53,807 bases of DNA from a virus (lineage: Duplodnaviria; Heunggongvirae; Uroviricota; Caudoviricetes), in IMG/VR virus record IMGVR_UViG_2718217709_000003; one strand, 5' to 3'. Under the pieces are notes generated by a model. It ran no database searches, was not told the DNA's origin, and worked only from the letters and a program-made list of their open reading frames with translations. Numbering within the stretch: position 1 is the stretch's first letter; every line of letters begins with the position of its first letter. Positions 1 to 32,676 of this stretch are shown here, one piece after another. The position numbers and the translations under genes are program-made.

Positions 1-725
1 ATGACGGTCGCCCAGTGTCTCGACTACTGGTTCGACAACTACGTCTCTACAACTCTCAGAGAAAAGACCCAGGCACTTTACCGATCAACGGTTATGAAGC
101 GCATGCATGACGCCTTTCCTAATCGTCCGGCATCTTCTATCACGGTTAAGCAATGGGTTGACCTGCTTACCGAAGAAGAAAGAGATAATCCACGCCGAGC
201 AAGGCAGGTGCTAAGTCAACTAAGATCAGCAATAAGTTGGTGCATGCGGCGTCAGTTGATAGATAGTTGCGCAATTATGAGCATCCAACCAAGGGACTTC
301 GGCTCCCGCGCTGAGGTAGGGGATCGGGTACTGTCGTATCACGAACTGGCTAAGATTTGGCTTGCTATTGAAAGAAGCCGTGCGTCTACGTCAAATAAGC
401 TACTTCATCAGATGCTTATGCTGTGGGGGGCGAGGCTCTCAGAGCTTAGGCTGGCAACAAAGACAGAGTTTGACCTGCTGGACAACGTATGGACCGTACC
501 GAAAGAGCATAGCAAGATGGGTAATGTTATCCGCCGTCCAATCTTCGAACAAATTAAGCCTTTCCTCGAAAAGGCCATGACAACGTACAATGATGTTCTT
601 TTCCCTGGAGAAGACATAAACAAACCGATCAGCATCGCTGCAGCCAACCGATTCGTAAATAGAATAAGGGGAGGGATGGATATAGGTTACTGGCGAACAC
701 ATGATTTCAGAAGAACGCTTGTTAC
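1..725 (+). pseudogene. P4-type tyrosine integrase, 5' portion (runs off the window start; interrupted by IS100)
   Basis: Frame-1 translation ends in the integrase box ...WRTHDFRRTLVT before the reading frame enters IS sequence at 726; the 3' portion resumes after the IS. Confidence 0.7.
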
Positions 726-3028
<2,303 letters not shown>

Positions 3029-3227
3029 CTTAATTCTCCAGGCAAAAAGAAACCGCCATATAGCGGCTCTATCAGATATGTACAGGCCTCATCGAGTGTG
3101 AGGCTGTGTGATTTCTTTATTTCCACTCTTAATGTTTGTCAGTGAATGGTTTCTCTATCTCCATTAATGCCTTATTCATCTCATTTCGTAACTCTATAGC
3201 CATCCTGACGGCTTCAACCTGTGCAGG

Positions 3228-4286
3228 ATGTCGGTTATGGGCGATTTAGCCATGAGGGCTAACGTCGCTCTTTCTCAGGGACCGGAAGCCTACAGTAAAT
3301 TCATTACTGACAACAAGGACAGGTTAAATCGCGTTGGTGCTAATGCTGACTGGATGATTCAGACAGGTATCCAGAATCCAGAGCAGCTATCACACATGCT
3401 GACTACTATGTCTCTCGGTGCGCTTGGACCAGAAAAGGCGTTTGCTGTTCAGGATAAGATGGCTGGTCGTGAAATTGACCGAGGCAGGCTGGCAGAGACA
3501 ATCCGCAGCAATCAGGCTGGTGAAGCACTTCAGGCGAGAGGGCAAAACCTTTCCTATCAGTCAGCAATGACTGGGCACAATATCGCAGCACAACGCTTGG
3601 CTCTGGATCAGCAAGAGTTCGGGTTTAAGATGCAGCAAGCGCAGGAAAAGGCTCAGCAGTTGATTAGTGAAGCACCTAAGCTGTCAGTAAACATGGAAAA
3701 AGGCATCGAGACGGCTGTAAACAATGCCACAGCATCATCAAACTCAGCCAATTCTATGAGTGCGCTTGCTCAACAGTTCAGAGCAGAAAAACCAACGACA
3801 GGTTTGTTCGGTAACGCACAGAACATGTTCGCAAAACTTACCGGAAGCGATACGACATTGCGTGATTTGCGCATCCGCCAAAATGCCCTTGTTAACAGTC
3901 AGGTTCTTAAATTCCTACCTCCCGGCCCAGCAACGGATAAAGACGTTGAGATCGTTCGGCAGGGTGCGCCAACTGACATGGATAACCCTGAGACGGTCGC
4001 AAGATGGCTTGATGCAATGGCAAACCTTGAGCGACGAAACGCGCAGTTTAATGAGTTTAAAGCTGAGTGGATGAGCGCGAATGGCAATCCTGGACAATCG
4101 CGTAATGGCGGTCAGATATTGGGGTTGGATGTTAAAAAAGGTGAATCATTGGGGAGTGCCGTTAAGCGGTATATGTCATTGAATACTGACGCAGCGCCAG
4201 CACAAGATTCGACACCTTCAGGAGAACCACGGAATCAGGTTGGATCATATACCTCAAAATCAGGCATTCAATTTACGGTGGAATGA
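3228..4286 (+). CDS. Hypothetical protein (352 aa); possibly a P22 gp20-like ejection protein
   Basis: Long ORF rich in Ala/Gln/Asn, translationally coupled (ATGA overlap) to the next ORF; lies upstream of the immI region and tailspike where P22-like phages encode ejection proteins. Product is inferred from position only. Confidence 0.4.
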
Positions 4287-6124
4287 TGAAAGTAACTGCA
4301 AACGGTAAGACATTTACCTTCCCTGATGGTACGAGCACGGAAGATATTGGAGCCGCCATTGATGATTATTTTGCTGGTCAGGTTGTTCAGCAACAAACAG
4401 TTAATCAGGCCAATAATGCACCAGTACGTGAAGAACCATCATTGATGCAACAAGCTGGCGATTGGCTCACTGGTGGTCAAAGTGCAGGGCAAATTGCAGA
4501 ACAGGCTGGTCGTGGTCTGGTAAACATACCATTTGACGTATTGCAGGGTGGCGCAAGTCTGATTAATGCAATCAGTCAGGGGCTTGGTGGGCCAAAAGTT
4601 TTGGATGATGTTTATCGTCCAGTAGACAAACCGACAGACCCATACGCACAAGCCGGTGAAACAATTGGTGGGTATTTAGTTCCAGGAGTTGGAACGGCAG
4701 GAAGCATGGCTATTGGATCGCTGGCAGAGGCCGCAAATCAGAAAGGCGATTTCGCACAAAATGCAGCTAAAAATGCCGGAGTTAACCTTGCCGCTCAGGG
4801 TGTTCTTTCCGCAGCAGCAAAGGGAATAGGGCGTGGAATAACGGCTATAAAAGGTGATATTGCGCCAGAAGTGGCGAAGAAAATTGCCACATCAGAATCG
4901 ATGGGCGTGACACCAATGACATCTGATGTTATCCCGCCGAAAAATGCTTTCACTCGCGGCCTTACTCAGGATGCCGAGGGGGCTTTGCTCGGGACGGGCT
5001 CAAAGCGAGCAGAGCAATATGCAACGCGGAGTAAGCTGGTAAGCAATTATTTTGACCGTTTTGGTGAGTACAACCCTGATGATGTGGTGAAATCTCTGAC
5101 CACCACGTTAAGGGGGCGGAAGGATGCCGCTGGCGCTGTTATCAATGACGTCACCAATAAAATGGGTAATGCCGCAGTTGATACCACAAATACCATGAAT
5201 GCTCTGAATACAGCGATCGCAAGACAGGAACGGCTTGGGACGTCTGCCAATCAAAGCCTGCTTACATCCTTGCGTAACCTACGTGAAGAATTAGCAAACC
5301 CTGCAACTGATTTGGATGTTACGTTTGATCTCTTGCGTCAGCACAGAACAGCATTTAGATCTAATGTTCAGGGAGATGCTATGGTCTTCCCCAACCAGGC
5401 AAAAGCAGCTACCAATATGGTAGAGAATGCAATGTCAAAAGACCTTCGTAACGCAGTTGCTAAAAACCTCGGTGCATCAGACGCAGCAAAATACCTTAAA
5501 GCAAATTCCGATTATGCAAACGTTTATAATAAGGTGCTTAATAAAAACATTGCCAACAAGCTCAACAAGGCAAGCAGTGAAGCCAGTCCTGAACTTATAA
5601 ATACCGTTGTATTAAGCAGAAAACCATCTGACGTGAAACGAATCTGGAGCGCACTGGATGATAAGGGGAAAGATGCTATGCGTGCAGCTTACGTCAGCAA
5701 AATAGCGGAAAAGACCGGGGACTCTCCAGCCAAGTTCATCACTGAAGTTAATAAGCTGAAATCTCAGTCAGGCGGTGAAATTTACAACACTATTTTTTCT
5801 GGAAAGCACATGAAAGAGCTTGATGCTCTTCATGAAGTTCTACAGCAAACAGCAAGGTCAGACACCGCAAATGTAGTAACTCAGACGGGGCAATCGCAAG
5901 CCAACAGGATAAGGACGATTGGCGCAACTGCGACCCTTGGCGTATCAATGGGGCTTGAGGCTGGTTTTGGTGCAATGATGCGCTTGTATGAGTCCAAAGC
6001 AGCAAGGAATATGCTTCTTCGTTTGGCAAACACCAAAGCAGGAACACCAGCCTATGAAAGAGCGATAAATAACGCTGCGAATGCCATCAGACCGCTGTTT
6101 GCTACTGAGGCAACACAGCAGTAA
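4283..6124 (+). CDS. Hypothetical protein (613 aa); possibly a P22 gp16-like ejection protein
   Basis: Long Ala/Gly-rich ORF, about the size of P22 gp16, in the matching position before the immI region; assignment is positional. Confidence 0.4.
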
Positions 6125-6148
6125 CGTATGGGAAATTGGATTCAATCG

Positions 6149-6538
6149 CTAACATTTTCTTTTTACTTTTCCAACAAAAGCTTTGGTTGAATCCATATTT
6201 CCATAACCGGAAATGGTTTTTGACATTAAAACTGTTCCAGTAGGATGTATTACCCATGAGTCGATAACGCGTTGAGTTTCGCCATTCGCGCCGATTCCTA
6301 TGATGGAGTTTTTAGACAATGCTTTGTAAGCCATGCCGCCCGCATCTGTCCCAGAATATGTGATGCTGGCATCTTCACCGTTTGTCTTAATGATGAATGT
6401 TCCACTAAAACCATCTTCTTCCGGATGGAAATTATTTCGTTCTGAATAGCTTATTCCGCGCATATCTCCAACGACCCAGCACTCTGCTGTAGCCCCAAAA
6501 GATATGAATAAGAACATAGCAGTAAGAAATTGCTTCAC
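6149..6538 (-). CDS. Secreted protein of unknown function (129 aa, N-terminal signal peptide)
   Basis: N-terminus MKQFLTAMFLFISFGATA looks like a Sec signal peptide; sits where P22-like phages carry sieA. Confidence 0.5.
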   Translation of the reverse strand: MKQFLTAMFLFISFGATAECWVVGDMRGISYSERNNFHPEEDGFSGTFIIKTNGEDASITYSGTDAGGMAYKALSKNSIIGIGANGETQRVIDSWVIHPTGTVLMSKTISGYGNMDSTKAFVGKVKRKC

Positions 6539-6655
6539 GCCAACCTCCTTAGTTTTGAGCAGGATACCATGAAAAAAGTAAACATCTTTTGCCTACTTCA
6601 CATTTGAATGGTTTGTCATTAGGATGTTTCCGGTTTTTTAAATATGGAAATTGAT

Positions 6656-7075
6656 ATGAAGAGGATTATTGGCGTCGTTGCTGGCGCTATATTGTTATCT
6701 GGGTGCGCAACTATTGTTGGTGACGAAACGCAGCTTGTGCAAGTGAACAGCAATCCTTCCGGTGCGAGCTTTAAGGTAAAAGACGAATCAGGCGTGATTG
6801 TTGCGCAAGGTAAGACCCCGCAAGGAGTAACTCTTGCCAAGTCAGATGGTAGTTATTTTGGCAAAAAGAGCTACCAGATCACTATGGAAAAGGATGGGTA
6901 CGAACCAGTTACCCTGCCAATCAAAGCCAATGCTAATGGCTGGTATATTGGTGGAAACCTTGTGTTTGGTGGGTTAATTGGTTGGCTTGCTGTAGATCCT
7001 TTTAATGGTGGGATGTATACCTTGAAGCCAAAAGAGGCAAACGCATCTCTTATACCATCAACAAAGCAAGACTAA
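6656..7075 (+). CDS. Lipoprotein of unknown function (about 139 aa)
   Basis: Lipobox LLSGC after a hydrophobic N-terminus (MKRIIGVVAGAILLSGC); followed by a strong intrinsic terminator. Confidence 0.55.
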   Translation: MKRIIGVVAGAILLSGCATIVGDETQLVQVNSNPSGASFKVKDESGVIVAQGKTPQGVTLAKSDGSYFGKKSYQITMEKDGYEPVTLPIKANANGWYIGGNLVFGGLIGWLAVDPFNGGMYTLKPKEANASLIPSTKQD

Positions 7076-7083
7076 TAAATAGG

Positions 7084-7108
7084 ACCCACCTTCAGGTGGG
7101 TTTTTTGT
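7084..7108 (+). terminator. Rho-independent terminator after the lipoprotein gene
   Basis: GC stem cccacc-ttcag-gtgggt followed by a T run (ttttttg). Confidence 0.6.
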
Positions 7109-7343
7109 ACAAATCCTTCAGCGTATCAAATACCATCTTCTTAACAAGCTCTGACTGCTCATCAGCGAGTCGTTCTGCATCGTCGCGATATCCAGTCACA
7201 GGCGATGGTTTTGATAGAGCATCTTGGACGATTTGTAACAACTCGGAGTTCATTGATCTCCCATTCGCCTCCGCCCTGAATTTTAATTTCTCCCTTACTT
7301 CCATAGGCATACGGAAGTTAAAGTGCGGATCATCTCTAGCCAT
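7092..7343 (-). CDS. mnt: Mnt repressor (ribbon-helix-helix), P22 immI region
   Basis: 83-aa protein MARDDPHFNFRMPMEVREKLKFRAEANGRSMNSELLQIVQDAL... matches P22 Mnt as I recall it. Confidence 0.85.
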   Translation of the reverse strand: MARDDPHFNFRMPMEVREKLKFRAEANGRSMNSELLQIVQDALSKPSPVTGYRDDAERLADEQSELVKKMVFDTLKDLYKKPT

Positions 7344-7370
7344 GCCATCACTCCAAGTTAGTGTATTGAC

Positions 7371-7391
7371 ATGATAGAAGCACTCTACTAT
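7371..7391. promoter_or_regulatory. Arc operator overlapping the Pant promoter
   Basis: ATGATAGAAGCACTCTACTAT matches the P22 arc operator; a TTGACA -35 hexamer sits immediately upstream (7366-7371). Confidence 0.7.
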
Positions 7392-7400
7392 ATTCTCAAT

Positions 7401-7417
7401 AGGTCCACGGTGGACCT
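7401..7417. promoter_or_regulatory. Mnt operator (17-bp palindrome)
   Basis: AGGTCCACGGTGGACCT is a perfect palindrome matching the P22 Omnt sequence. Confidence 0.7.
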
Positions 7418-7433
7418 ATATTGTGAGGTGAAT

Positions 7434-7595
7434 ATGAAAGGAATGAGCAAGATGCCGCAGTTCAATTTGCGGTGGCCTAAAGAAGTATTGGATTTGGTCC
7501 GCAAGGTGGCGGAAGAGAATGGTCGGTCTGTTAACTCTGAGATTTATCAGAGAGTAATGGAAAGCTTTAAGAAGGAAGGGCGCATTGGCGCGTAA
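7434..7595 (+). CDS. arc: Arc repressor (53 aa)
   Basis: [53 protein letters not shown]; the ORF track extends it upstream, but the ATG at 7434 gives the canonical 53 aa. Confidence 0.85.
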
Positions 7596-7663
7596 AGTTG
7601 AAGCCCCAACTGCGGGAACAGTCAGGGCTTCGGTTGTCAGTAAATCCGTGGAGAAAAACCAAC

Positions 7664-8566
7664 ATGAATAGTATAGCAATTTTAGAAGCAGTGAACACCT
7701 CTTATGTACCATTCAACGGTCAGCAAATTATCACCGCCATGGCTGCCGGAGTTGCATATGTTGCGATGAAGCCAATCGTTGAAAACCTTGGAATGAGCTG
7801 GTCAACGCAGCAAACAAAACTCATGAAGCAGATTAGCAAATTCAACTGTGTTCATATGAACATGGTTGCCGCTGATGGGAAGCTTCGTAAGCTACTCTGC
7901 CTTCCTTTGAAGAAGTTAAATGGATGGCTGTTCAGCATCAACCCTGAGAAAGTTCGTGCTGACATCCGTGATAAACTGATTCAGTACCAGGAAGAATGCT
8001 TTACTGTACTGCATGACTACTGGACAAAGGGAAAGGCAGAAAATGCACGTAAGAAAACATCTGTTGATGACAGGACTCCGCTTCGTGATGCTGTAAATAT
8101 GCTAGTCAGCAAAAAGCATCTAATGTACCCAGAAGCTTATGCAATGATTCATCAGCGTTTCAATGTGGAAAGTATTGAAGAGCTTGATGCATCTCAGATA
8201 CCGCAAGCCGTAGAGTACATCCACAGGGTAGTGCTTGAAGGTGAATTTATCGGCAAACAAGAGAAGAAAACCAACGAGCTTTCTGCAAAAGAAGCAAACA
8301 GCCTTGTATGGTTATGGGATTATGCCAACCGCTCACAGGCATTATTCCGCGAACTGTATCTGGCGCTAAAACAAATTCAATCGAACTATTCCGGCAGATG
8401 CTACGACTACGGTCATGAATTCTCGTATGTTATCGGAATGGCGAGAGACGTTTTAATAAACCACACACGAGATGTTGATATTAATGAGCCAGACGGACCA
8501 ACGAATCTTTCCGCATGGATGAGACTTAAGAATAAAGAATTGCCTCCTTCAGTACATAACTACTGA
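7664..8566 (+). CDS. ant: Antirepressor Ant (300 aa)
   Basis: Directly downstream of arc as in P22 immI; start taken at MNSIAIL, which gives 300 aa. Confidence 0.7.
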
Positions 8567-8585
8567 CAGATAACCAACGCAACGA

Positions 8586-8609
8586 CCCAGCTTCGGCTGG
8601 GTTTTTTTA
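8586..8609 (+). terminator. Rho-independent terminator after ant
   Basis: Stem acccagc-ttcg-gctgggt followed by tttttttat. Confidence 0.6.
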
Positions 8610-8666
8610 TGCCCAAAATTCACCGTAGCTACGCTGCGGCGATTCCTTGTATCTGGAGCAAATTAA

Positions 8667-11168
8667 ATGACAGACATTACAGCCAATGTTGTAGTAAGCA
8701 TGCCTTCGCAACTCTTCACTATGGCGCGTTCTTTTAAAGCCGTAGCCAATGGCAAAATTTATATCGGTAAAATTGACACTGACCCGGTAAATCCTGAAAA
8801 CCAGATTCAGGTCTATGTGGAGAACGAAGACGGCTCTCACGTTCCTGTTGCACAGCCAATCGTCATCAATGCCGCAGGGTATCCAGTATATAACGGACAG
8901 ATTGCCAAATTCGTTACCGTGCAAGGCCATTCTATGGCTGTTTATGATGCGTATGGTGCTCAGCAGTTCTATTTTCCTAATGTGCTGAAGTATGATCCAG
9001 ATCAACTACGTGCACAACTTTTAAGCCCATTGGATGGACTTGGAGATAACCTTGTTAACGTAAAGCAACCAGGCATGTCGTCAGACAGAAGAACTGTTCA
9101 TGATAAAATGATTGAGTCAATCAGCATAGCTGATTACATTGTAAATGACAGCAGCATAACAAATGCAATTATAAATGCCTTAAGTTCAAACGTAGGAACT
9201 ATAATTATTCCTCCTGGTGAGTTTGTTGCAAACCCGTCAATAAAAGATGTTTCTGGATTATTTAAGTTGTTTTCAAGATGTGAGTTAAGGGGGCGGCTTA
9301 CAGTTAATATTCCTCCTGGCTATTCATATTTTACAGAAAAGACCATTGTTAGTTGTATAGGCGCCCATAATTTGACAATTAAGGGTGTCAAATATGAAAC
9401 ATCAATAACATCACTTGTATCAGTTGCTGGTTCGAAGAAAAATTATTCTGTAACGATATCGCTTTCTGATGCTTCAAATGTTTCTGTTGGTGATTATATC
9501 ATAATTAGACATGACGTTTCAGGAACCGGTGCATATCACATGCACTGTGGAGGATGGAAAGTACTGTCAGTTTCTGGAGCAAATGTTACAGTAAATAATA
9601 CTTGCCATCTTGATAACTTCCCTGAATCGACATTAACTGGAGGATCGGTATCTATAATTAAGTCGGTTCTCAAATATACTGGTTGTGATGGTTTTGCCGT
9701 GTCAGGTGGTGATTGTATTAATACAATTGATGGTGTAGCCATTGTTGGTGATTACTCGGTAGCAGAATCTATAGGCACAATTGGAGCGCATGGGTTCACT
9801 ATTGCCACGCCTGATATAACAATTGATGAACCAGATCCATCAAATAAAGTATTTGACATGTCTGGTAATTTAGCAATTGGTCCTGATATTGTTATATCAG
9901 GGTGGGGGGAGCAGGGATTTGTTGCTTCTGGTCGAGCAGGTGTTGTATGTAATTTTATAGCTTCATCATCTAATAGAAAGCGCGGTATTTACGCGGAAGG
10001 AGCTCATATCAGAGGAAAATTCATGGTTTGCTCTGGTAATGGTGAAGATGGGATTATATCTGATATCGGTGGTGCGATTCAGGCCAACGGATCTGTATGC
10101 TCAGGAAATGGGTTGAATGGGTTCTGGTCATTTAATAACAGTGAGTTAAGCGCGCCAAATGGTGTTGCGTGTGGTAACTCAACAAATGGTATTGAGGCCA
10201 GGGCGTTATCAAAAGTTAATTTCGAAAACGGTAGATCATATCTAAATGCCAGAAATGGAGTATCAGCGTCATATGGTGGAAACATAGCTTTCACTGGTGG
10301 AACATCTAGCGATAATGTAATAGATGGTATCTATTCTGTTTACAACGCAACAGTAGCAGCTAATAATGCAAGTTCGAAAAACAACAGAAGGTATGGTGTT
10401 AACTGCACAGATTCTATGATAGTTATGACTGGTAGCGGAGATGTGTCAGGAAATGTTGCTGCAAACTATATAGATAACGGTGGCGGGGTAATTATAGATA
10501 CGGAAGGAGAGGTGATTCCTGTTAATGCACATCCGCAGAGAAATCTCATGCTGAGGAATGCAACAACTCTTTCTGGTTGTGATATTTCACCTTCATCAAT
10601 TGGTGATATTACCATTTCGTTAAAAAGCTCTCCTTCTGCAGATTTAAGTGATCGTTATGTTTTTAAAGCCGATGGAACTCAGCATCCATCTGGTGATGCA
10701 ACCCAAAATTTGGGGCGCGCGAGCAACAGATATAATGTTGGATATTTTGCCGGAGGTACGCAATCAAGTTCTGATGCAAGACTCAAGACAGCAGTTAGAG
10801 GTATGACCGCTGATGAAATAAATGCCGCAATGAAGATTGCAGAAGTTCTAGGTTTTTGGTCTTGGATTGATGATGAATCTAAAAGACTGCATGCTGGAAC
10901 GACTGTTCAGAAAGTTATTGCAATACTTGAGGAGAATAATCTTGATTGGAAAAAATACGGATTTATTGGTTATGATGCTTGGGATGATGAATTTGAATAT
11001 GTTACTGAAATTGATGAATTTGGAAACTTAGTTAAGAATGGAGAGATGAAGTTGATTAGAGCGGCTGGTGATCTTTGGCAGTTTAGAGATCAGGAGCTTG
11101 ATAGATTTATAATGAGAGGTCTTTTCGAAAGAATTAGAAAGCTTGAAGAATCGTTATACCAAAGATAG
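8667..11168 (+). CDS. Tailspike (833 aa): P22-type head-binding N-terminus, beta-helix receptor domain, C-terminal intramolecular chaperone
   Basis: First ~110 aa ([59 protein letters not shown]...[15 protein letters not shown]) match the P22 gp9 N-terminus; central SGNG/GxNG repeats typical of a parallel beta-helix; C-terminus ...[11 protein letters not shown]...GFWSWIDDE... resembles the peptidase S74 autochaperone. Confidence 0.8.
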
Positions 11169-11282
11169 TAATATCAATGGGTATAATCATTTCTATATAA
11201 AAAACAGATAACCAGCAAATATCACACAAAGCTTTGCACTGGATTGCAAGGCTTTGTGCTCTTCGATAGTGGTTAAGGCGGA

Positions 11283-11351
11283 TCACTCCACCTTTTCATC
11301 AATCCAGTCCGCCCACCATTGCATCATTTCTCTGCGCTTATCGTGGCAGAT
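11283..11351 (-). pseudogene. 3'-terminal fragment of a P4-family integrase gene
   Basis: Last ~22 codons ...SICHDKRREMMQWWADWIDEKVE* resemble the conserved C-terminal tail of P4-type integrases; upstream codons are not integrase-like. Confidence 0.45.
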
Positions 11352-11931
11352 AGATGCCTCACTATCACACGGTGATGGTTCATTACTGGTTTGCATAATG
11401 GATAGAGAACTGCGGATAAAAGATATCCCAAAACCCCAAAATCTCATCTTTAGGGGTTGCAGAAAGGGAGGCGTGAACAAATACCTGCGCATGAAAACGG
11501 AACTAGTCCAGATGTGATGTTTGTGGTGATCACATACATCATTAACGATGCTCGTTATGGTGAGTTTGATGACTACCCGCTGAAGTAAAAATTGTGTTGT
11601 GTACCAAATTGCGTACCAAACTAAAATCACAAATCATGAAGCCCTTGTTCATGGCGGTTCTCAGTGGTGTTGCGCGTAATCGTGAAACAAAAAGGTAGAT
11701 TGTTGCTTACCGTCATTCATCATTAGGTTAAATCCGTTATTTCTGCTGTCTGCCAGAGTATCAAATATCACCGTGCTAATCAGCTTTAGCGCGACAATTT
11801 GGCAGCGAGTGACAACAGATCATGTCAGATAAAAATGAGATAGTAGTCACATTTTCTTGCACTTTATTCCAGCCAGTTCATAAGTATTTCCGTAAAAAGA
11901 ACAGCTATTTGAAACACCTGAGGGTTTGCTG

Positions 11932-11957
11932 TTGAAACGCCGTCTTATTATTGCTGC
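11932..11957 (+). pseudogene. dacD: dacD 5' fragment (first ~9 codons, TTG start), cut by IS2
   Basis: Encodes (M)KRRLIIAA, then IS2 begins; the rest of the signal peptide (SLFVFNLSSGFA) resumes at 13289. Confidence 0.7.
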
Positions 11958-11968
11958 TGGATTTGCCC

Positions 11969-12874
11969 CTATATTTCCAGACATCTGTTATCACTTAACC
12001 CATTACAAGCCCGCTGCCGCAGATATTCCCGTGGCGAGCGATAACCCAGCGCACTATGCGGATGCCATTCGTTATAATGCTCGAACGCCTCTGCAAGGTT
12101 CTTTGCTGCCGTTAACCCGTCTGGTTTGGGCATGATACTGATGTAGTCACGCTTTATCGTTTTCACGAAGCTCTCTGCTATTCCGTTACTCTCCGGACTC
12201 CGCACCGCCGTGTTCTTCGGTTCAAGTCCCAACATCCGGGCGAACTGGCGTGTTTCATTAGCCCGGTAGCATGAACCATTATCCGTCAGCCACTCCACTG
12301 GAGACGACGGAAGATCGTTGCCGAAGCGGCGTTCCACCGCTCCCAGCATGACGTCCTGTACTGTTTCACTGTTGAAGCCGCCGGTAGTGACCGCCCAGTG
12401 CAGTGCCTCACGATCACAGCAGTCCAGCGCGAACGTGACACGCAGTCTCTCTCCGTTATCACAGCAGAACTCGAACCCGTCAGAGCACCATCGCTGATTG
12501 CTTTCTTTCACGGCCACTCTGCCTGTATGTGCCCGTTTCGATGGCGGTACAGCAGGTTTTCGCTCAAGCAACAGCGCATTCTGGCGCATGATCCGGTAAA
12601 CACGTTTGGCATTGATCGCAGGCATACCATCAAGTTCTGCCTGTCTGCGAAGCAGCGCCCATACCCGACGATAACCATACGTGGGCAGCTCTCCGATAAC
12701 ATGGTGTATACGGAGAAGCACATCCGTATCATCAGTGTGACGACTGCGGCGGCCATCCATCCAGTCATCGGTTCGTCTGAGAATGACGTGCAACTGCGCA
12801 CGCGACACCCGGAGACAACGGCTGACTAAGCTTACTCCCCATCCCCGGGCAATAAGGGCGCGTGCGCTATCCAC
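11969..12874 (-). CDS. insD: IS2 transposase InsD (OrfB, 301 aa)
   Basis: IS3-family DDE transposase ORF within the IS2 boundaries. Confidence 0.85.
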
Positions 12875-13197
12875 TTTTTTGCCCGTCCATATTCAACGGC
12901 TTCTTTGAGGAGTTCATTTTCCATCGTTTTCTTGCCGAGCAGGCGCTGGAGTTCTTTAATCTGCTTCATGGCGGCAGCAAGTTCAGAGGCAGGAACAACC
13001 TGTTCTCCGGCGGCGACAGCAGTAAGACTTCCTTCCTGGTATTGCTTACACCAGAGAAATAACTGGCTGGCTGCTACACCATGTTGCCGGGCAACGAGGG
13101 AGACCGTCATCCCCGGTTCAAAGCTCTGCTGAACAATTGCGATCTTTTCCTGTGTGGTACGCCGTCTGCGTTTCTCCGGCCCTAAGACATCAATCAT
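12832..13197 (-). CDS. insC: IS2 InsC (OrfA, 121 aa)
   Basis: [40 protein letters not shown]... HTH protein; overlaps insD in the usual frameshift arrangement. Confidence 0.85.
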
Positions 13198-13288
13198 CTG
13201 TTCTCCAATGACTAGTCTAAAAACTAGTATTAAGACTATCACTTATTTAAGTGATACTGGTTGTCTGGAGATTCAGGGGGCCAGTCTA

Positions 13289-22338: not shown

Positions 22339-23434
22339 CAGACACTCCAGTCATGTTAAGAGTGATTGCCGTACAGTTTGCCCATTCGTTTTCTGCCACC
22401 ACCCGCAGTGCCGGTGTCACCAGTTCAACCTGGTACACCCCGGAAACGGACAATGCACTGATAATCTGGCTGGGGACAATATCGCGCCCCAGCGTGGCGG
22501 CACGTGATGCCACCCAGTTCTGTATGGCGCTGTTAGCGGCATCTTTTACAGACCTGGCATCCTGATCACGATAGATCGTAATCCTGGCTTCAATGGTGTA
22601 ATCCACCTTCACTGGTGTTTTAGCCCGCACTGTATCAGTGAGTGGCCTGACTTTCTCATCAGAGCAGAAACTCTCTACCAGCGTGAGAACACCGCCGTCC
22701 GGCAGACCGGTACTGAGCAGCGGATACAGATCTACGGTCCCGGGAACCGGGGAAAGCACAGCAACATCGACAATGTTGGGATGGGCCTGCATGGCATGAA
22801 AGCGGTATGCGCCACGGCTTCCGGCATTGGTGAATGACTCCGGGGCCAGCCTGATACGCTCCCGGAGCCTGTCATCGTCTTCCTGTTCTGAACCGCCGGA
22901 ACTGGCCGTCAGATTGCTCACCAGCAGGTCGACGTTATCAATCTCATCGAGTAACTGACTGACCTGCGCAGGTTGCCAGCCGTTACCAGCGGTACCGGGT
23001 TCGGTACAGGTGGACGTGACATTGACCAGCAGCAATCCGGCCTTCAGTACCACATCTGTATCGGTGGCAAAAATAACGCTGTCGGAAGCGCTGACGCGGG
23101 TGCCTGCCGGGATCAGCACATCAATGGCCAGTGCCTCATCTACGGAGAACTGGAGCGTGGTGGTGGCAGGCTGCGCGGCAAGACGGTATACACCAACCAG
23201 TTCACCGAGGTAATCAATCATCGGCTCACGGGCAAAGGCGACCAGATTCTGCTTTGCTGCCTCCTGTACCGCAACCCTGACCAGCATTTCGCGATAGGCC
23301 CACAGATCAATCAGCAGACGTTCTGCCTGTGCCGGGTACAGCGTTTTGCCGGTATCCGCTTCATACTTCGCAATCATTTCTGCCGTGATTTTGTCGGCAT
23401 CGCGTTCAATAAAATCGGGTTCTGTCAGCGCCAT
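22331..23434 (-). CDS. Baseplate protein J-like (367 aa)
   Basis: Size and position upstream of the gpI-like and fibre genes, as in P2 gpJ / Mu gp47. Confidence 0.7.
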   Translation of the reverse strand: MALTEPDFIERDADKITAEMIAKYEADTGKTLYPAQAERLLIDLWAYREMLVRVAVQEAAKQNLVAFAREPMIDYLGELVGVYRLAAQPATTTLQFSVDEALAIDVLIPAGTRVSASDSVIFATDTDVVLKAGLLLVNVTSTCTEPGTAGNGWQPAQVSQLLDEIDNVDLLVSNLTASSGGSEQEDDDRLRERIRLAPESFTNAGSRGAYRFHAMQAHPNIVDVAVLSPVPGTVDLYPLLSTGLPDGGVLTLVESFCSDEKVRPLTDTVRAKTPVKVDYTIEARITIYRDQDARSVKDAANSAIQNWVASRAATLGRDIVPSQIISALSVSGVYQVELVTPALRVVAENEWANCTAITLNMTGVSDD

Positions 23435-23772
23435 AGCAGCTCCTGAGTCCGGGTCTGTCCGTCTGAGCCTTTCCAGCTCACCCGGAGCGTAAGATGTTCG
23501 CCGTCGACGGCGGGTTTAACTGACATAAGCTGGCAGCGGGGCTCCCAGCGCCGGATGGCATCGACGGATTCGCGCACCACATGCGGAATGGCCCGGTCTA
23601 CAGGCCAGTCGATATAAAGATGCAGATTGCTGCCGAACTCCGGGCGATGCGGGTCGCTGCCGCGGGGAGTCCGCAGGATAATTTGAATCGCCTGCCGGAT
23701 ATCATCCAGCCCCCGGACAATTTCGCCGGGAGCCTGCAGGGCTGGTTGCCAGAATACTGAGGTCGTTTTCAT
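23425..23772 (-). CDS. Baseplate wedge protein, gpW/gp25-like (115 aa)
   Basis: Small protein between the V-like and J-like genes, matching the P2 V-W-J-I order. Confidence 0.65.
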   Translation of the reverse strand: MKTTSVFWQPALQAPGEIVRGLDDIRQAIQIILRTPRGSDPHRPEFGSNLHLYIDWPVDRAIPHVVRESVDAIRRWEPRCQLMSVKPAVDGEHLTLRVSWKGSDGQTRTQELLWR

Positions 23773-23826
23773 GGGGGCAGTATTGCCCCCGTGCGGGAAC
23801 GCTGATATTAAAGGCGTTTAAGAAGC

Positions 23827-24423
23827 TCAGTGGGAGTGGTGGCTGGAGTTTTCGCCATCAGACAGCATACTGCCCGTGGCATGGGCATTCCCTTTAATCT
23901 CGATATTGCCATGGATGGTCGCGGTAACACCTTTACCACCAGAACCCGCCATGCCTCCTTCGTAAATCAGCTTTCCCCTGACACGCAGATCTCCGGTAAG
24001 TTCGGTTTCCGGTGCGTCAATCGTGGCTTTCTGTGTTTTCAATACCACATCAGCACCACACTCAATGACAATATGCTCAATGCCGCCCCGGATGGTCAGA
24101 GTGTGCGTCTTCCGGTTGTAGCTGTACTCTGCACCATCAGCAAACCGGGTTCCCCGGATATTTTTGTCACTGAACGGTGGTTTATCGACGTCTGAATACA
24201 CCGCGCCCAGAATAACACCATCCTCGCCGTTGGCATCGAGCAGCACCTCAACCTGCTCCCCCACGTCAGGGAGCCAGTAATCTTTGTTATCCTGGGTATT
24301 GCGCTGCAGCACGTTAAGCCAGTTTGTGCGCAGGTTATCGCATTCAGGCAGACGAACGCGGGCCTGAACACTGTCGGCATCAACGGCACTGACCGTACCG
24401 ACCTGACGAGTGACACCAGTCAT
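23827..24423 (-). CDS. Baseplate spike / assembly protein V-like (198 aa)
   Basis: Gly-rich C-terminal tip and conserved position upstream of the W/J/I genes. Confidence 0.65.
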   Translation of the reverse strand: MTGVTRQVGTVSAVDADSVQARVRLPECDNLRTNWLNVLQRNTQDNKDYWLPDVGEQVEVLLDANGEDGVILGAVYSDVDKPPFSDKNIRGTRFADGAEYSYNRKTHTLTIRGGIEHIVIECGADVVLKTQKATIDAPETELTGDLRVRGKLIYEGGMAGSGGKGVTATIHGNIEIKGNAHATGSMLSDGENSSHHSH

Positions 24424-25574
24424 TTTTTCTTCTCCTTAATCACCGTCGATGTACTGCCATCCGGGTGATAAACCGTGAGTTTCTGAGTTTTTTGTTTTTT
24501 CCCTCTTGTGACTGGCCCCCGTGCCACTTCCAGCTCTGTGGTGTAGCCGCTGTTACGGTCAAACGCATGGCGGGCAGTGGTTATGAGCCATGGCCCGGAT
24601 AACTGCCCAAAACCCACCAGTTCAATTTTGTTGCCTGCTGTCAGTTGAGGTGTTCCCGTCAGCGTCAGGGAGCCGTTCTGCTGGTATTCGTTATGTCTGG
24701 CCAGTGCTGAATCCGCTTTAATCCGGGCACTGTCCGGGTCGCTGACGCGGCTGTTAACTTTAAGTGAGTCAGCGCTGGTAACCTTACCACCTTTGAGCTT
24801 TTTGTCGCTTTCACGGGTACCACCATCAGCTTCGTAGACGATCAGTTTTTTACTGCTGCTTTTCTGGTGTTTTACCTTTGCAGATTTATAGACCCGGTTG
24901 ATGGTGTCACGCAGGGAAAAGCGGGCCACATCCTGCGGTTTTAACTGCCTGACCGGCTCCTGACTGCGCAGTGTGGCCAGATGAGAAAAAATCAGCTGGT
25001 CACTGACCACTTTCACTGCATAACCATACTCGCTGGCCAGCCGGCGCAGAAAACCCACGTCGGTTTCAGCATACTGGGTCACCCGGTCGATTCTGATGGA
25101 CTCAATGCTGCCCACCAGTTTCAGTCGGTGCTTTCTGGCAATCCGCCCCGCAACAGCTGCCAGCGTGGTGTTCTCAAAACCACGACTGGTTTTAGTCCGC
25201 AGGGCACTGTTAACCGAGGTGGCCACCCCACGGATAGAAACAACGGAAGCGGGCGAACTCACTTCGATCTCGTCTATAGAGAACGTACCGCAGGACAGCA
25301 GCTTCTCGCCCTGATAGCCCATTTTCAGCGTCAGCGTGTCACCCTTGCCCGGATACCATTTATCCAGCCAGCGGCCATCGGTGTCGTCCAGCTCCACCTC
25401 AATGGTATCGGACTCATTTTTGATGTTATCGCTCCAGGTCACACGGGTGACATAAGGCGCGATATCAGAGGTGATGTTTTTCTGCAGATACCACAAAGTG
25501 AACACCGGTGTCAGCACATCGCTGACGCCGGTTAACGCTGATGTGACTTGCGCAGTGCTGTTTATCTCAGCCAT
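24420..25574 (-). CDS. Tail protein, P2 gpD-like / Mu gpP-like (384 aa)
   Basis: Size and position after the X-like and U-like genes, as in P2-type tails. Confidence 0.65.
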   Translation of the reverse strand: MAEINSTAQVTSALTGVSDVLTPVFTLWYLQKNITSDIAPYVTRVTWSDNIKNESDTIEVELDDTDGRWLDKWYPGKGDTLTLKMGYQGEKLLSCGTFSIDEIEVSSPASVVSIRGVATSVNSALRTKTSRGFENTTLAAVAGRIARKHRLKLVGSIESIRIDRVTQYAETDVGFLRRLASEYGYAVKVVSDQLIFSHLATLRSQEPVRQLKPQDVARFSLRDTINRVYKSAKVKHQKSSSKKLIVYEADGGTRESDKKLKGGKVTSADSLKVNSRVSDPDSARIKADSALARHNEYQQNGSLTLTGTPQLTAGNKIELVGFGQLSGPWLITTARHAFDRNSGYTTELEVARGPVTRGKKQKTQKLTVYHPDGSTSTVIKEKKK

Positions 25575-25777
25575 GGGGCAATATCCTCTTCTGTACGGGC
25601 TTCTTCAGCCTCAATCACCGGGATCAGTAACAACAGCCCGGAGGGCAGCACCGGCGTGATGGCCACGTGCGGATTGGCGGCAATAATCCGGGGATAGCCC
25701 AGCGGGTCACCGTAGTACTGCCATGCCAGCGAATCCCAGCGCTCTCCGTCACGGGTAACATGTTCAAGAAACATCAC
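25562..25777 (-). CDS. Tail protein X-like (71 aa)
   Basis: Small protein immediately before the gpD-like gene, as in P2. Confidence 0.55.
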   Translation of the reverse strand: MMFLEHVTRDGERWDSLAWQYYGDPLGYPRIIAANPHVAITPVLPSGLLLLIPVIEAEEARTEEDIAPWLR

Positions 25778-26658
25778 ACACTCCTCGTCAGTATTCTGGC
25801 GGCCATTGCACTTAATCCCGGAGACATGCGGTTGAATGCTGTGCCGGCGGCATTAAGCTGTCCGGAAACGGTATCCAGAGCACCTGCAATATTTCTTTTG
25901 TCCACACCACTCAGCGCAGACTGTGCCTGCTGTACATACGTGACTGCTTCGCTGGCTGTTCTGGCCAGACTGATGGCATCGGGCATGGATTCAGAGAGTG
26001 CGTTAAACGCCGGAACACTTTTCCCCAGAGCCCCGGAGATATTACCCAGTCCGCTCATCAGCCCCGGCACACGGGTCAGTGCGACAACGGGGTTATCCTT
26101 CATTTTCTGTGTCACCCGAACGGCGCTGATAGTGGTCTGGAGTACAGACTGCGCCTGTTTCGCATAGTTGACGCCGTTGCGGATGAACTGCGCCACCCCT
26201 GAAGGTGAAGGTATGGCACCGGAGACCGCCCCGACACCCGGTAGCTTCGTGCGTATTGCCGGTGGTTGCAGAGGATTTTTCGGGTCACCGGTGTATTCCC
26301 GGAGAGACACGGTGGCACTGACAGCCAGCACGTTGCCGGTACTGTCAGTCTGCTCGCTGGTTGCAGTCACATCGGTAATCACGAACCAGCCACGATAGTC
26401 ACCGTTGCCGAAGACCAGCGCCAGTGCCTGATGGGCTTTCATGGTTGTTCGCAGTCTCGCCAGCTCCACATCGGGTACACAATAATGCTGATGGAAGACC
26501 AGACTTATCTGGATTTCGTCCAGCCTGTCGCCGACGAACTGCAGGCCAGGCTTACCCCCGATGCGGGCATGCTCCGCATAATCGACGCCGAACGTGGCCT
26601 CGAAGCCGTCCCAGTAGGTAATCAGCTCAAACTCAATATCACCCAGTACGGCAAACAT
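25774..26658 (-). CDS. Tail assembly protein (P2 gpU-like / Mu DNA-circulation-protein-like), 294 aa
   Basis: Position directly downstream of the tape measure gene; family assignment is tentative. Confidence 0.5.
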   Translation of the reverse strand: MFAVLGDIEFELITYWDGFEATFGVDYAEHARIGGKPGLQFVGDRLDEIQISLVFHQHYCVPDVELARLRTTMKAHQALALVFGNGDYRGWFVITDVTATSEQTDSTGNVLAVSATVSLREYTGDPKNPLQPPAIRTKLPGVGAVSGAIPSPSGVAQFIRNGVNYAKQAQSVLQTTISAVRVTQKMKDNPVVALTRVPGLMSGLGNISGALGKSVPAFNALSESMPDAISLARTASEAVTYVQQAQSALSGVDKRNIAGALDTVSGQLNAAGTAFNRMSPGLSAMAARILTRSV

Positions 26659-29609
26659 CAGCGGTACTCCTTACGTTGTTTCTGAGCCAGCAGACGCTCC
26701 AGCATTTTTTCCAGCTCATGCAGGCTCATATTCAGGGCGCCAGTCAGTCCGGCAGGCGCTGTGGTTTCCCTGCCATTGAGGAAAAACTGAGGATTAAAGC
26801 TGACCTGGATACCACCAGACGTTCCACCGCCGGTTGCAGCTGCACCACGGCCTGAATATCCGGCAGCCATGATTTCAGGCGAGGGGATACGGGGAACATC
26901 CGGTGTCATCTCATTTGCCAGACGTTGCCCTGGTAAAATCGATGCCCGGGTGGAGAGCGGGATAGCGGGCATGGAAGACAAACTATTGATTACGGCTCCG
27001 ATCGCATTTTTAGCAGACGACATAAACCCGTTGATATCGGGCAACGGCATACTGAAGCGAACACCTGAAGTGTTATCCCGTATTTCTGGCCCCTGAATGC
27101 TCTCGGGCATTCTGGGGAGCAGTTCACTGGCCATTCGCTGCCCGGCCAGAGCTGCAAGCGGAGTGGTCCGCTGCAGGCCAATGGCGGCCCCCTGCGCGAT
27201 ATTGTCACCAAAGCCCATAAACACGCGGCTCGGCGAATGAATACCCAGCTTTTCACTGAACCAGCCACTGATGCTGTCACCCATTCCGGTTACACTGGAT
27301 TTGAGCGACTCCCATTTGTTTTTGATACCGTTAATCAGACCGTCGACAAGATGGCCACCGAAGTCGGTGAACTTTGCCGGCAGATCAACACCAAGATATT
27401 TCAGCGCAGCTGCAAAGGCTTTATAGAGCAGACCTGCCGGCGACCAGTTAATCAGCAGCTTACCAGTTCCCGCGATACCGCCGTTAAAGGCTTCCTGAAT
27501 GTCAGCCCAGCACTGTTTAAACCAGCTACTGATGCTGTCACCCATTCCGGTTACACTGGATTTGAGCGACCCCCATTTGTTTTTGATACCGTTAATCAGA
27601 CCGTCGATAAGATGGCCACCGAAGTCGGTGAACTTTGCCGGCAGAGCAACGCCGAAATATTTCAGCGCAGCCGCAAAGGCTTTATAGAGCAGGCCTGCCG
27701 GCGACCAGTTAATCAGCAACTTACCAATTCCCACAATGCCGCCGTTAAAGGCTTCCTGAATGTCTGCCCAGCGCTGTTTAAACCAGCCACTGACTGCCCC
27801 CCAGTTGCGGTAGATAAGGTAAGCTGCTGCCGCGACAGCGGTGATAACGAGACCGATGGGATTCATCATCAGCGCACGTCCAATCCAGAGAACAGCACGT
27901 CCGGCGAGCATAATTCCGCGAACCAGCCCCCCGGAGAGCACGCCACTCAGTGTTCTGGCTCCTCTGGCGACGGCGCTAAATCCGGTCACCAGCCAGCGGA
28001 GCTTACCGCCTTGCCCCAGTGCGAGCGACAGACGAAGCCAGTTGGCCCGAAGTAAAACAGCATTTTTCCAGACACTTACAAAGGGGGAAATAAGGAGATT
28101 CAGCCCCAGTTTGAGACCAACAGTCGCTATCTTAATCGCAAGGAGCGCACTGATGAGCTTAAAAGCCCCACTGACAAATTGCGGGTGAGTCGCTACCCAG
28201 TGTTTTGCCCCCTGAATGAGTGGAAGCAGTTCCTGAGTCAAAGAAATAAAAGATGGAGCTAATTGATCGCCCAGCGTAATTGCCAGATCGCGACTGCTGA
28301 CCATAAGTGTTTTAGTGGCTTCAAGGGGAGATTTCAGCCGCTGATCATAAGCACTGGCAAGCAAATCGTTATCCGCAGCCCTGAGAGCACCGGCACGGAT
28401 CTCTCGATATCTGTCCATGTTGGCCAGCATCGGGCGGATAAATGCCATGACCTGCATATCCGCGAACATATCGCCCAGACCAAAGTTTTTCGCCAGAGCC
28501 TGAAGTGCCTCATCTCTTGCCGTATCATTCTTTATTTTCATGGCTGATTTGAAGCCGGCCAGCGCTTCGGGGCTTTTGGCATTGAGGTAACGTTCTATAA
28601 CACTCAACATCCCTTCAATCGGAGAGATCCCCGCAGCTTTATAACTCGCAATAGATCCCTGCAAATCAATACCCAGATCAGCAAACTGTTTCTGAGTATC
28701 GCGGGCAAAAATTTTGGTAAGAAAGTTTTTAAAATTATTGGCTGCTTCGTCGGTGGAACCTGCACCGATTTTTGCTATCTGGAGACTGGCCCCGATTTCA
28801 GCAACAGCCTCTTTTCCACTGGCAATACCCGCCATCATTGGGGCCAGGGACTGCATCCACTTGACCTGATCCGGGATTTCAAATGACCCCTGATCACCGG
28901 CATAAGCCATAATATTCTGAACGGCACCAAAATCTCTGGCCGCACCTTTCAGGGAGTTTTGCCAGACTGCGGCCACTTTTGCCCAGTCCTGAGCAGACGT
29001 GCGTGTTGCCGTTGCCGCGCGGGCAATATCCGGCATCAGAAAACCGATATCTGACACATTATCAATATTGTCGCTGATGAGTGAACCCACCGCCTCCTGC
29101 AGCTCATCCTGATACTGATTGTATTTAAGCGCCCAGCCTTTTATCTGTCCGGCAAGTGCATCCCGCGTTTTATTGTCATATTTTGCGGTGATCGACATAT
29201 CAATCATTTTGTCCTGAAAAGACATGGACTGCTGAACGGCAGGGGAAACCGTATGATAAACAGTCTGTGCCATGCCATACGCTTCAATCCCCTGACCATA
29301 CAGCGCCATGCGGTTAGCTTTCAGCGCATCACTGGTAGCGGATGCCGCTGACAGACGGCGCTGCTGGCGCTCAATTTGCTCCATGGTGCGGCTTACCCGC
29401 AGCAGCTCGCTGTTGAGATGCTGCATCCGGGAAGAACCCAGTTGACCATAACGTTCTGTTGCACGGGTTAAAGCGTTCTGACGTTCCTGCAGGCGGCGTG
29501 AGGTATCGCTCAGGGAATCAAGCGCACGGCGGGTACCGCTCATTGCAGAACGGAATGTGCTGCCAATCATCCCGCCGATAACAACGCCGACTGAAAACTG
29601 TCCCGACAT
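26658..29609 (-). CDS. Tail tape measure protein (983 aa)
   Basis: Very long, Ala/Gly-rich protein with a hydrophobic central region, downstream of the frameshifted chaperone. Confidence 0.85.
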   Translation of the reverse strand: MSGQFSVGVVIGGMIGSTFRSAMSGTRRALDSLSDTSRRLQERQNALTRATERYGQLGSSRMQHLNSELLRVSRTMEQIERQQRRLSAASATSDALKANRMALYGQGIEAYGMAQTVYHTVSPAVQQSMSFQDKMIDMSITAKYDNKTRDALAGQIKGWALKYNQYQDELQEAVGSLISDNIDNVSDIGFLMPDIARAATATRTSAQDWAKVAAVWQNSLKGAARDFGAVQNIMAYAGDQGSFEIPDQVKWMQSLAPMMAGIASGKEAVAEIGASLQIAKIGAGSTDEAANNFKNFLTKIFARDTQKQFADLGIDLQGSIASYKAAGISPIEGMLSVIERYLNAKSPEALAGFKSAMKIKNDTARDEALQALAKNFGLGDMFADMQVMAFIRPMLANMDRYREIRAGALRAADNDLLASAYDQRLKSPLEATKTLMVSSRDLAITLGDQLAPSFISLTQELLPLIQGAKHWVATHPQFVSGAFKLISALLAIKIATVGLKLGLNLLISPFVSVWKNAVLLRANWLRLSLALGQGGKLRWLVTGFSAVARGARTLSGVLSGGLVRGIMLAGRAVLWIGRALMMNPIGLVITAVAAAAYLIYRNWGAVSGWFKQRWADIQEAFNGGIVGIGKLLINWSPAGLLYKAFAAALKYFGVALPAKFTDFGGHLIDGLINGIKNKWGSLKSSVTGMGDSISSWFKQCWADIQEAFNGGIAGTGKLLINWSPAGLLYKAFAAALKYLGVDLPAKFTDFGGHLVDGLINGIKNKWESLKSSVTGMGDSISGWFSEKLGIHSPSRVFMGFGDNIAQGAAIGLQRTTPLAALAGQRMASELLPRMPESIQGPEIRDNTSGVRFSMPLPDINGFMSSAKNAIGAVINSLSSMPAIPLSTRASILPGQRLANEMTPDVPRIPSPEIMAAGYSGRGAAATGGGTSGGIQVSFNPQFFLNGRETTAPAGLTGALNMSLHELEKMLERLLAQKQRKEYR
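27261..27758. repeat. Tandem duplication of a ~249-bp unit (83 codons) inside the tape measure gene
   Basis: Tape measure segment WFKQ(R/C)WADIQEAFNGGI...GMGDSIS occurs twice in tandem; the antisense ORF 27237-28055 shows the same 83-aa periodicity. Confidence 0.8.
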
Positions 29610-29684
29610 AGTGGTTAACCTCCGGGGAAGGTGAAAAGACGTGAGGGGATAACGCAGAACAGCCGCTACTGGCGGCTGTCTGTA

Positions 29685-30102
29685 CTATGATTTGTCGCCG
29701 TACTCGCTTTTTATTTGCTCTTCAGCCTGCTCCAGCCACATCTCCAGATCGTCAGTATCGAGGGCATCAATCTCCCCCGGCTGAAACCGGAACCATCTCG
29801 CCAGCAGCCCCTGCGCCTGCGTCAGCGCCTTTGTCGCTCTCACCCATCCCCGTGATGAGCTGAAATCGTTTCTGTAACTGCAGGTAATCAGCCAGGTCCA
29901 TATTGTCGAGATCTTCCGGGAGAAGACCAGTACTGCGGGCAATCAGCGGTTCGTCCCAGTCTGCCGGGTTTTTGCTGATTTTGCGCACCTGCTTCAGGTC
30001 TTTTACCGTCAGGCGTTTCAGTTCAACCTGCTCAATTCTGGTGCCTGCAGCAGTGGTGAAGGGATAAGACAATTTAAAAGTATCGGATGGGGTCTGTGAC
30101 AT
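29685..30102 (-). CDS. Tail assembly chaperone with programmed -1 frameshift extension (P2 E/E'-like)
   Basis: 0-frame ORF 29767-30102 (111 aa) ends ...AGEMVPVSAGGD*; the -1 frame continues ...PGEIDALDTDDLEMWLEQAEEQIKSEYGDKS; candidate slip site on the coding strand is CCGGGGGAG (complement of 29771-29779). Confidence 0.6.
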
Positions 30103-30199
30103 GATTGTGCTCCTGTGTAAGTTCAGGGCAGTATGTCGGGAGAAGCGCGTGACGGATATTAAAGGAGATTAAGAAGAAGGGGCCGGAGCCCCTGTGATG

Positions 30200-30481: not shown

Positions 30482-30483
30482 CG

Positions 30484-32432: not shown

Positions 32433-32676
32433 GGGTGTCCTCCGTTTTCACTTCGCTGTCACTGCTGCTCCTGCGCTTTGGTGACTGCACAGCCGGTGTG
32501 CCGGCGGGTTTAGTCTCTTCAGGTACCGGCGTCAGATGTTTCAGCGCCACCAGTACCTTCACGTAGTCATGCTCCTCCGGCAGGGAAACCGTCTTCCCCG
32601 GCCAGAGCAGGATTTCGGTTCCGTCCGACAGCGTGACGCCGCTGGCCGGGCCGGAATAGCGGTATTCTTTCATCAC
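32422..32676 (-). CDS. Small Mu-like virion protein (84 aa)
   Basis: Short ORF between the head-completion genes and the sheath gene. Confidence 0.45.
   Translation of the reverse strand: MMKEYRYSGPASGVTLSDGTEILLWPGKTVSLPEEHDYVKVLVALKHLTPVPEETKPAGTPAVQSPKRRSSSDSEVKTEDTHGS

Follow-up and report, generated by a model that had tools for sequence, protein, structure and literature searches.

The window analysed here, a stretch of 53,807 nucleotides, opens with the remnant of a P22-like prophage whose last late gene encodes a tailspike. Beyond this gene, on the opposite strand, lies the extreme 3' end of an integrase gene (henceforth the stub), followed by a fragment of a umuD-like gene, an attachment site and host DNA (Table 1). 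Over 15.7 kb it shares 99.994% identity with the genome of E. coli L1_E925 (NZ_LR883050.1; window coordinates equal those of the record minus 1859839), in which the order is sbcB, an IS100-interrupted int pseudogene, a xis-like helix-turn-helix (HTH) gene, a 5'-truncated ejection-protein gene, a DNA-transfer protein gene, arc, mnt, ant, the tailspike gene, the stub/umuD' region, IS2 and dacD. The PGAP annotation of the stub/umuD' region comes from the sister strain E1433.

Table 1 Features of the window discussed in the text, with the evidence for each.
Feature	Position	Strand	Evidence or remark
2851-type integrase of the prophage, from about aa 95	1-726	+	PGAP; tblastn with mEp234 Int; Pfam Phage_integrase
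IS100 (istA, 812-1834; istB, 1831-2613), inserted in the 2851-type int	812-2613	+	NZ_LR883050.1 annotation
2851-type integrase, C-terminal remainder	2617-2856	+	NZ_LR883050.1 annotation; tblastn with mEp234 Int
Excisionase-like HTH gene of the 2851-type module	2837-3028	-	Homologue follows int in mEp234, HK140 and Sf101
Ejection-protein gene, truncated	3228-4286		PHROG 917 profile
P22-like tailspike gene, last late gene of the prophage remnant	8667-11168	+	ORF; Pfam; PGAP 'phage tailspike protein'
Spacer particular to this tailspike module	11169-11222		All matches to stub-bearing phages have their left edge at 11223-11225
Conserved hairpin (14-bp stem, 6-nt loop), IntS-type int 3' flank	11225-11258		Fold; invariant alignment columns
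Integrase stub, last 19 codons and stop (DKRREMMQWWADWIDEKVE*)	11283-11342	-	Homology to IntS/HK620/Sf6-type P4-like tyrosine integrase
Illegitimate junction of int stub and umuD-like fragment	11343-11349		Includes a 4-bp duplication particular to this lineage
umuD/humD-like S24 peptidase gene, 3' fragment (about aa 50-129)	11350-11588	+	PGAP pseudogene; tblastn
Phage arm of attP (2851 type), umuD' stop to core	11589-11674		Collinear with attP of mEp234, 1717, HK140 and Sf101
attR core CGTAATCGTGAAA, 13 bp (phage 2851/Sf101 attP core)	11675-11687	+	Exact match, single copy in the window
Host DNA: orphaned sbcB 5' end (minus strand, MMNDGKQQSTFLFHDY) and sbcB-dacD intergenic region	11688-11931		Alignment with K-12; ORF 11661-11771
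IS2 (1331 bp, target duplication GCTGC), in dacD after about codon 9	11958-13288	-	Unrelated to the stub
Second prophage, Hin/Gin-type DNA invertase	17615-18316	-	Beside tail-fibre segments
Second prophage, tape measure	26658-29609		
Second prophage, head protease	34901-36016		
Second prophage, terminase	38987-40510		

The tailspike pairs the P22 head-binding N-terminal domain (Pfam Head_binding, 1.4e-66) with a C-terminal Peptidase_S74 domain (i.e., an endosialidase-type intramolecular chaperone). At the far left of the window lies the prophage's own integrase gene, whose product is ~90% identical to the 2851-type integrase of mEp234 and whose 5' end falls, together with attL, just outside the window. 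Given that this gene is split by IS100, the prophage remnant cannot excise with its own enzyme. The xis-like gene behind it abuts the N-terminally truncated ejection-protein gene at a deletion endpoint of about 3030-3230, and since the latter aligns with the PHROG 917 profile from position 123 onwards, a large deletion lies between the two genes. Early, lysis and head genes are all missing. The original prediction had suggested a deletion of most of int and everything beyond it; the breakpoint is instead internal, between xis and the ejection-protein gene.

Further to the right (approximately 17600-50000) lies a second, unrelated prophage, a myovirus that is 98.7% identical to Escherichia phage PhiKM over 81% of the 25 kb probed. 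The position of its Hin/Gin-type invertase beside tail-fibre segments suggests an invertible host-range switch.

Integration of the prophage at sbcB

We placed the attachment site by a five-way alignment of the attR of the window, attB of K-12, attP of mEp234, attR of 1717 and attL. As far as the core CGTAATCGTGAAA the window matches the attP arms found in mEp234 and 1717, and from there on it is K-12 sbcB/dacD DNA. This 13-bp core has been published for phages 2851 and Sf101 (PMC4159516); the annotation of phage 1717 gives it as a duplication and that of mEp234 as attP. It lies 330 bp beyond the stub, and 506 bp separate it from the tailspike stop; with a phage arm before the core and sbcB DNA after it, these 506 bp are the tail-proximal arm of an ordinary attR. 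The reciprocal attL adjoins sbcB in the 99.99%-identical genome NZ_LR883050.1. The prophage is integrated at sbcB in the ordinary way, with attR at 11675-11687.

The tailspike and integrase ends facing each other had been read as the tailspike-attP-int arrangement of a circular, unintegrated phage, and an alignment with phage attP regions and with the sbcB-dacD intergenic region had been proposed as the check. The five-way alignment shows a succession of attP arm, core and host DNA, and the circular arrangement is contradicted: we found neither a 2851-type nor an IntS-type att core between the tailspike and the stub (11169-11282). The prophage's own integrase, in its two parts, occupies the opposite, sbcB-proximal end, which is the standard layout of an integrated phage. 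A search near the stub for the 16-bp core used by IntS at argW (CTGCAGGGGACACCAT) gave no match with up to 3 mismatches, its two hits being distant and at chance level, and a tRNA scan of the window found no tRNA, hence none near the stub.

Integration has left the original start of sbcB (MMNDGKQQSTFLFHDY, 11688-11722, minus strand) orphaned at attR, while at attL phage DNA supplies the gene with a replacement 5' end (MTDTDKQPTFLFHDY), so that sbcB remains an open gene whose N-terminus and upstream region come from the phage. On the other side of the host segment, the K-12 start codon of dacD (TTG) corresponds to window position 11932, and IS2 (with target-duplication flanks at 11953-11957 and 13289-13293) splits off the start of the signal peptide; PGAP calls an 'intact' dacD from 13271, i.e., from within the end of IS2.

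An integrase tail joined to a umuD-like fragment

As originally predicted, the 3' end of an integrase gene is present on the minus strand with its stop facing that of the tailspike, although its extent and distance needed correction. Specifically, homology covers 19 rather than 22 codons (the 3 extra codons within 11283-11351 are not integrase-derived), and the stop codon (11283-11285) lies 114 nt, rather than 115 bp, past the last base of the tailspike stop (11168). The stub translates as ...SICH DKRREMMQWWADWIDEKVE, with full-length IntS-type integrases terminating in ...IYNHAQYLDKRREMMQWWADWLD(D/E)KVE and those of 611R6 and HK620 in ...GIYNHAQYLDKRREMMQWWADWLD(D/E)KVE*; in the peptide comparison, DKRREMMQWWADWIDEKVE in the stub stands against DKRREMMQWWADWLDEKVE in the integrase family.

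The similarity also holds at the DNA level and continues past the stop codon through the int 3' flank (~60 nt) to position 11223. Identity across this piece (11223-11343) is 98.3% with phage JEP4. Among phages whose annotated int gene is full-length, the 3' end of int is 94-95% identical in vB_EcoP-611R6 and 683R2, 94% in CUS-3 and 91% in HK620, with phage matches of 91-98% over 110-121 nt overall (E-values from 1e-35 to about 1e-53). Compared with the final 61 nt of annotated intS genes in ~700 complete E. coli genomes, K-12 among them, identity is 95-98% (E about 7e-21). The last 19 codons, the stop and the flank with its hairpin are what the stub has in common with the IntS-type int genes (K-12 CPS-53/KplE1 intS, HK620, Sf6, CUS-3 and 611R6), along with an orientation that converges on tailspike or cargo genes. 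The earlier label 'P4-type' was fair, given that the parent family carries the domains Arm-DNA-bind_3, Phage_int_M and Phage_integrase (Pfam, full-length 611R6 Int).

By contrast with these genes, the stub has no arm-binding (Arm-DNA-bind_3), core-binding (central) or catalytic domain and is fused to unrelated DNA, and no argW-type core or tRNA lies near it. In the parent integrase the Pfam Phage_integrase domain ends at residue 365 of 385. The homology of the stub ends 19 codons before the stop, beginning after ...YL, so that the catalytic tyrosine motif (IYNHAQY) is absent and no catalytic residue is held; about 5% of the int gene is retained. Positions 11283-11342 are therefore a remnant of an IntS-type, P4-like tyrosine integrase gene of which most has been lost. 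As it contains no catalytic residues and no conserved open reading frame, the stub is non-functional and encodes nothing functional.

Upstream of the stub codons the DNA is umuD-like and reads on the other strand. This fragment aligns in two frames and has an internal stop, meaning that no intact S24 reading frame is present; the intact UmuD-like gene of phage HK140, the product of which carries Pfam Peptidase_S24, matches it in tblastn at 2e-15. In HK140 that gene immediately precedes the same attP and int, and the fragment is part of the 2851-type integration module. We rejected the HK140 gene as the parent of the junction because it is too divergent (~52% protein identity over the part concerned), and the similarity to it at the int/umuD junction (T-TCGA) is accordingly no more than suggestive. 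At approximately 11343-11350 four base pairs are duplicated in the window, which reads CAGATAGATGCC where relatives have CAGATGCC; the nearest genomes that are not identical lack these 4 bp at the junction.

The arrangement of the parent family bears on how the facing genes are to be read. In the HK620 record, int (50-1207, minus strand) has the attP core on its 5' side (1368-1383) and a terminator on its 3' side, and the 611R6 prophage is ordered yfdC, tRNA-Arg(CCT), int, and then cargo and tailspike genes. The intS promoter overlaps attL next to argW, and the module is common to HK620, Sf6 and CUS-3 (PMC2951348). With attP 5' of int, convergence of tailspike and int is native to this family whether the phage is circular or integrated, and is no evidence on circularity.

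Distribution of the junction and a second class of stub

The same junction is found far beyond this prophage. From 11223/11225 to about 11700 the window is collinear, at 89-96% identity, with Sf101, mEp234, 2851, 1717 and E. coli strain 600055, all of which have an identical stub/umuD' breakpoint. In Sf101 the stub block lies between oacB and attP/int, in mEp234 (an HK97-like siphovirus) between the side tail fibre gene and attP/int, and in the Stx phages 2851 and 1717 at the right end. A junction-spanning probe was positive in 366 of 5,426 complete E. coli genomes, and the whole stub-to-dacD (attR) region was found in 419 of the 5,426. The reading frame of int has decayed in these 19-codon stubs (class B), with amino-acid replacements in mEp234 and Sf101 and with stop codons immediately upstream of the stub frame in every member except the present lineage.

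Given that one junction recurs in sequenced phages and in E. coli genomes by the hundred, the stub is inherited rather than made by a deletion in this prophage. The original prediction was right that most of a P4-type integrase gene had been lost, and mistaken in attributing the loss to a deletion here. We also considered a tandem or nested origin from a resident IntS prophage and rejected it, because IntS targets argW and because phage genomes that have been sequenced contain the stub.

In its core, phage arm and insertion at the 5' end of sbcB, the prophage resembles the phages with a 2851-type module (2851, 1717, Sf101, mEp234, HK544 and HK140), and, as in these, the cognate int and xis lie at the opposite prophage end. 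It differs from the listed phages in that IS100 disrupts its int and in having lost most of its genome by deletion. Within this set HK140 and HK544 differ from the stub carriers, as their module has no stub and consists of dinI, a hypothetical gene, an intact umuD-like gene, attP, int and xis.

A second class of stub (class C) retains 27 codons of the same int tail and has a different breakpoint. It occurs in 434, JEP4, Gally, HZ41, ev099 and mEp332, where it likewise lies between late or cargo genes and attP, and it shares the hairpin with the window except in ev099 and mEp332. These longer stubs start at IYNHAQYL, thereby keeping the catalytic-tyrosine motif, are directly preceded by a stop codon, and in 434 have lost their own stop. 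They differ from the stub of the window also in what adjoins them, namely a lambda-type module of attP with sib, int and xis. In 434, JEP4, Gally and ev099 the stub is followed by lambda-type int, together with xis wherever this gene is annotated; the attP core is annotated only in the 434 record, and the record of mEp332 stops soon after the stub. The existence of a second breakpoint means that modules were replaced within this int gene at least twice, or in a nested fashion. Class B could have arisen from class C when a further replacement took place inside the first, and not directly from a complete int gene.

In phage 434 (797-2956) the int-stub block lies just downstream of fragments of nleC- and nleH-like type III secretion effector genes and an IS1414 remnant. 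These neighbours indicate that the region to the left of the hairpin serves as a cargo slot in different phages.

Origin of the stub

Gene remnants and 'linker' sequences at mosaic junctions are well known in lambdoid phages, a general concept for which the work of Clark and colleagues on HK620 in 2001 and that of Hendrix and Casjens on mosaicism are examples. The stub resembles such remnants in its sharp homology boundary, in being a fragment from non-homologous recombination and in its later spread through homologous exchange in shared flanks. We consider it very probable that it is a non-functional scar of an ancient replacement of one integration module by another.

From the homologies, the junctions, the attR, the position of the prophage's real integrase and the distribution among genomes, all of which the analysis shows, we infer the following order and mechanism. 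The ancestor would have been a lambdoid or P22-like phage with the IntS-type layout of HK620, Sf6 and CUS-3, i.e., with int converging on tailspike or cargo genes and with attP and xis on the 5' side of int. Illegitimate recombination may then have joined int, at the 19th codon from its end, to about codon 50 of a umuD-like gene located immediately upstream of a 2851-type attP (in a donor ordered umuD-like gene, attP, int, xis and targeting the 5' end of sbcB). The body of the IntS-type int would thereby have been replaced together with its attP and xis, changing specificity from argW to sbcB and leaving behind the hairpin of the int 3' flank, 19 int codons and a truncated umuD'. The composite block (hairpin, stub, umuD', attP, 2851-type int and xis) would since have passed as a unit, through homologous recombination, between phages of the P22-like, HK97-like and Stx groups. 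In the present lineage, integration at sbcB left the half with hairpin, stub, umuD' and attR beside the tailspike and the half with int and xis at the far end, and subsequent decay brought IS100 into int, the large internal deletion and IS2 into the neighbouring dacD. Some points fit this account less well: neither direct parent of the junction is among the sequences compared, the umuD-like gene of HK140 being as divergent as described, and the hairpin and stub, with a conservation of about 90-98%, are better preserved than might be expected of a neutral relic.

This conservation is the starting point of the alternative that survives best, namely that the hairpin-plus-stub block has been kept by selection (as a terminator/insulator, a CII-responsive element or an exchange linker), with the coding remnant being incidental. 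Across podo-, sipho- and Stx phages the hairpin hardly varies, and its fold is better than that of shuffled sequence (z about -2.9); the terminator annotated for the int transcript by the authors of the HK620 record (38289..23) maps to 11226-11257 of the window, i.e., onto the hairpin. Furthermore, the homology starts sharply at 11223 among unrelated phages with wholly different genes on the left, and on the right the same int tail adjoins two distinct modules. However, there is no U-tract beside the hairpin on either strand, and a consensus scan of 11000-12000 called no terminator and found promoter-like sites at background level. In addition, ev099 and mEp332 have kept the stub and lost the hairpin, and recent spread with frequent recombination can also explain the conservation. 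We regard selective retention as quite improbable, and even if it were correct it would leave the origin of the stub as a scar unchanged. As for CII, positions 11234-11251 of the hairpin contain TTGCACTGGATTGC, which fits the CII-box consensus TTGC-N6-TTGC, and in the record of phage 434 CII binding sites are annotated at the homologous position; these TTGC repeats may simply follow from the palindrome itself.

The hairpin is the only retained piece with a plausible role, and we infer that it may terminate or insulate the late tailspike transcript. It is conceivable, if rather unlikely, that 11223-11342 as a whole is a selected boundary element, combining a terminator/insulator with a shared recombination 'linker'. 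If so, lambdoid phages would repeatedly swap integration modules on one side of this linker (IntS/argW, lambda/attB, 2851/sbcB) and exchange tail-fibre, tailspike or cargo genes on the other, which would explain both the sharp left edge and the occurrence of the block in podo-, sipho- and Stx phages.

Very little probability attaches to the original reading, in which the order tailspike-attP-int belongs to a circular phage (or to the junction of a tandem lysogen) and the prophage's own int and everything beyond it were deleted. The 114-nt spacing of the facing 3' ends and the heavy deletion of the prophage would agree with it, but the single core is a phage/host attR rather than a site between tailspike and stub, the prophage's own integrase is of another type and at the other end, the junction recurs in intact sequenced phages and in hundreds of other genomes, and the parent IntS family has attP 5' of int. 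Less probable again is that the stub forms the C-terminus of a real small protein, encoded by a 115-aa open reading frame (11283-11630, minus strand) that is uninterrupted in the window. This frame, which we rejected as a gene, is open here only because the lineage-specific 4-bp duplication shifts it; it is broken in all other carriers, with multiple stops in mEp234, 1717, Sf101 and strain 600055, and it runs antisense to the umuD-like pseudogene. Finally, chance similarity, which the original prediction had named as its refutation and which the mere 19 codons of the stub might invite, has a negligible probability given 91-98% identity over 110-121 nt including the flank (E-values of 1e-35 to 9e-53) and the match to intS.

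To what extent is this remnant new? The attP core, the targeting of sbcB and the 2851-type integrase have already been published, and the remnant is a newly described case of a familiar kind. The Sf101 genome paper describes the stub region only as apparently non-coding, and our search, which covered open-access papers, found no mention of this specific remnant.

For annotation, the case means that an integrase fragment beside a tailspike should not be taken for the prophage's own broken int, nor for a sign of a circular or tandem form; taken as such, the stub would here point to the wrong prophage end and the wrong att site. For the lambdoid phages, it means that the 2851-type sbcB module, which is carried by Stx phages and by the serotype-converting Sf101, moves together with a fixed scar left by a previous IntS (argW) module, and that the same int gene was also truncated elsewhere upon the gain of lambda-type modules. 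Without invoking any new mechanism, the stub thus provides a compact record of the switching of integration specificity in lambdoid phages.
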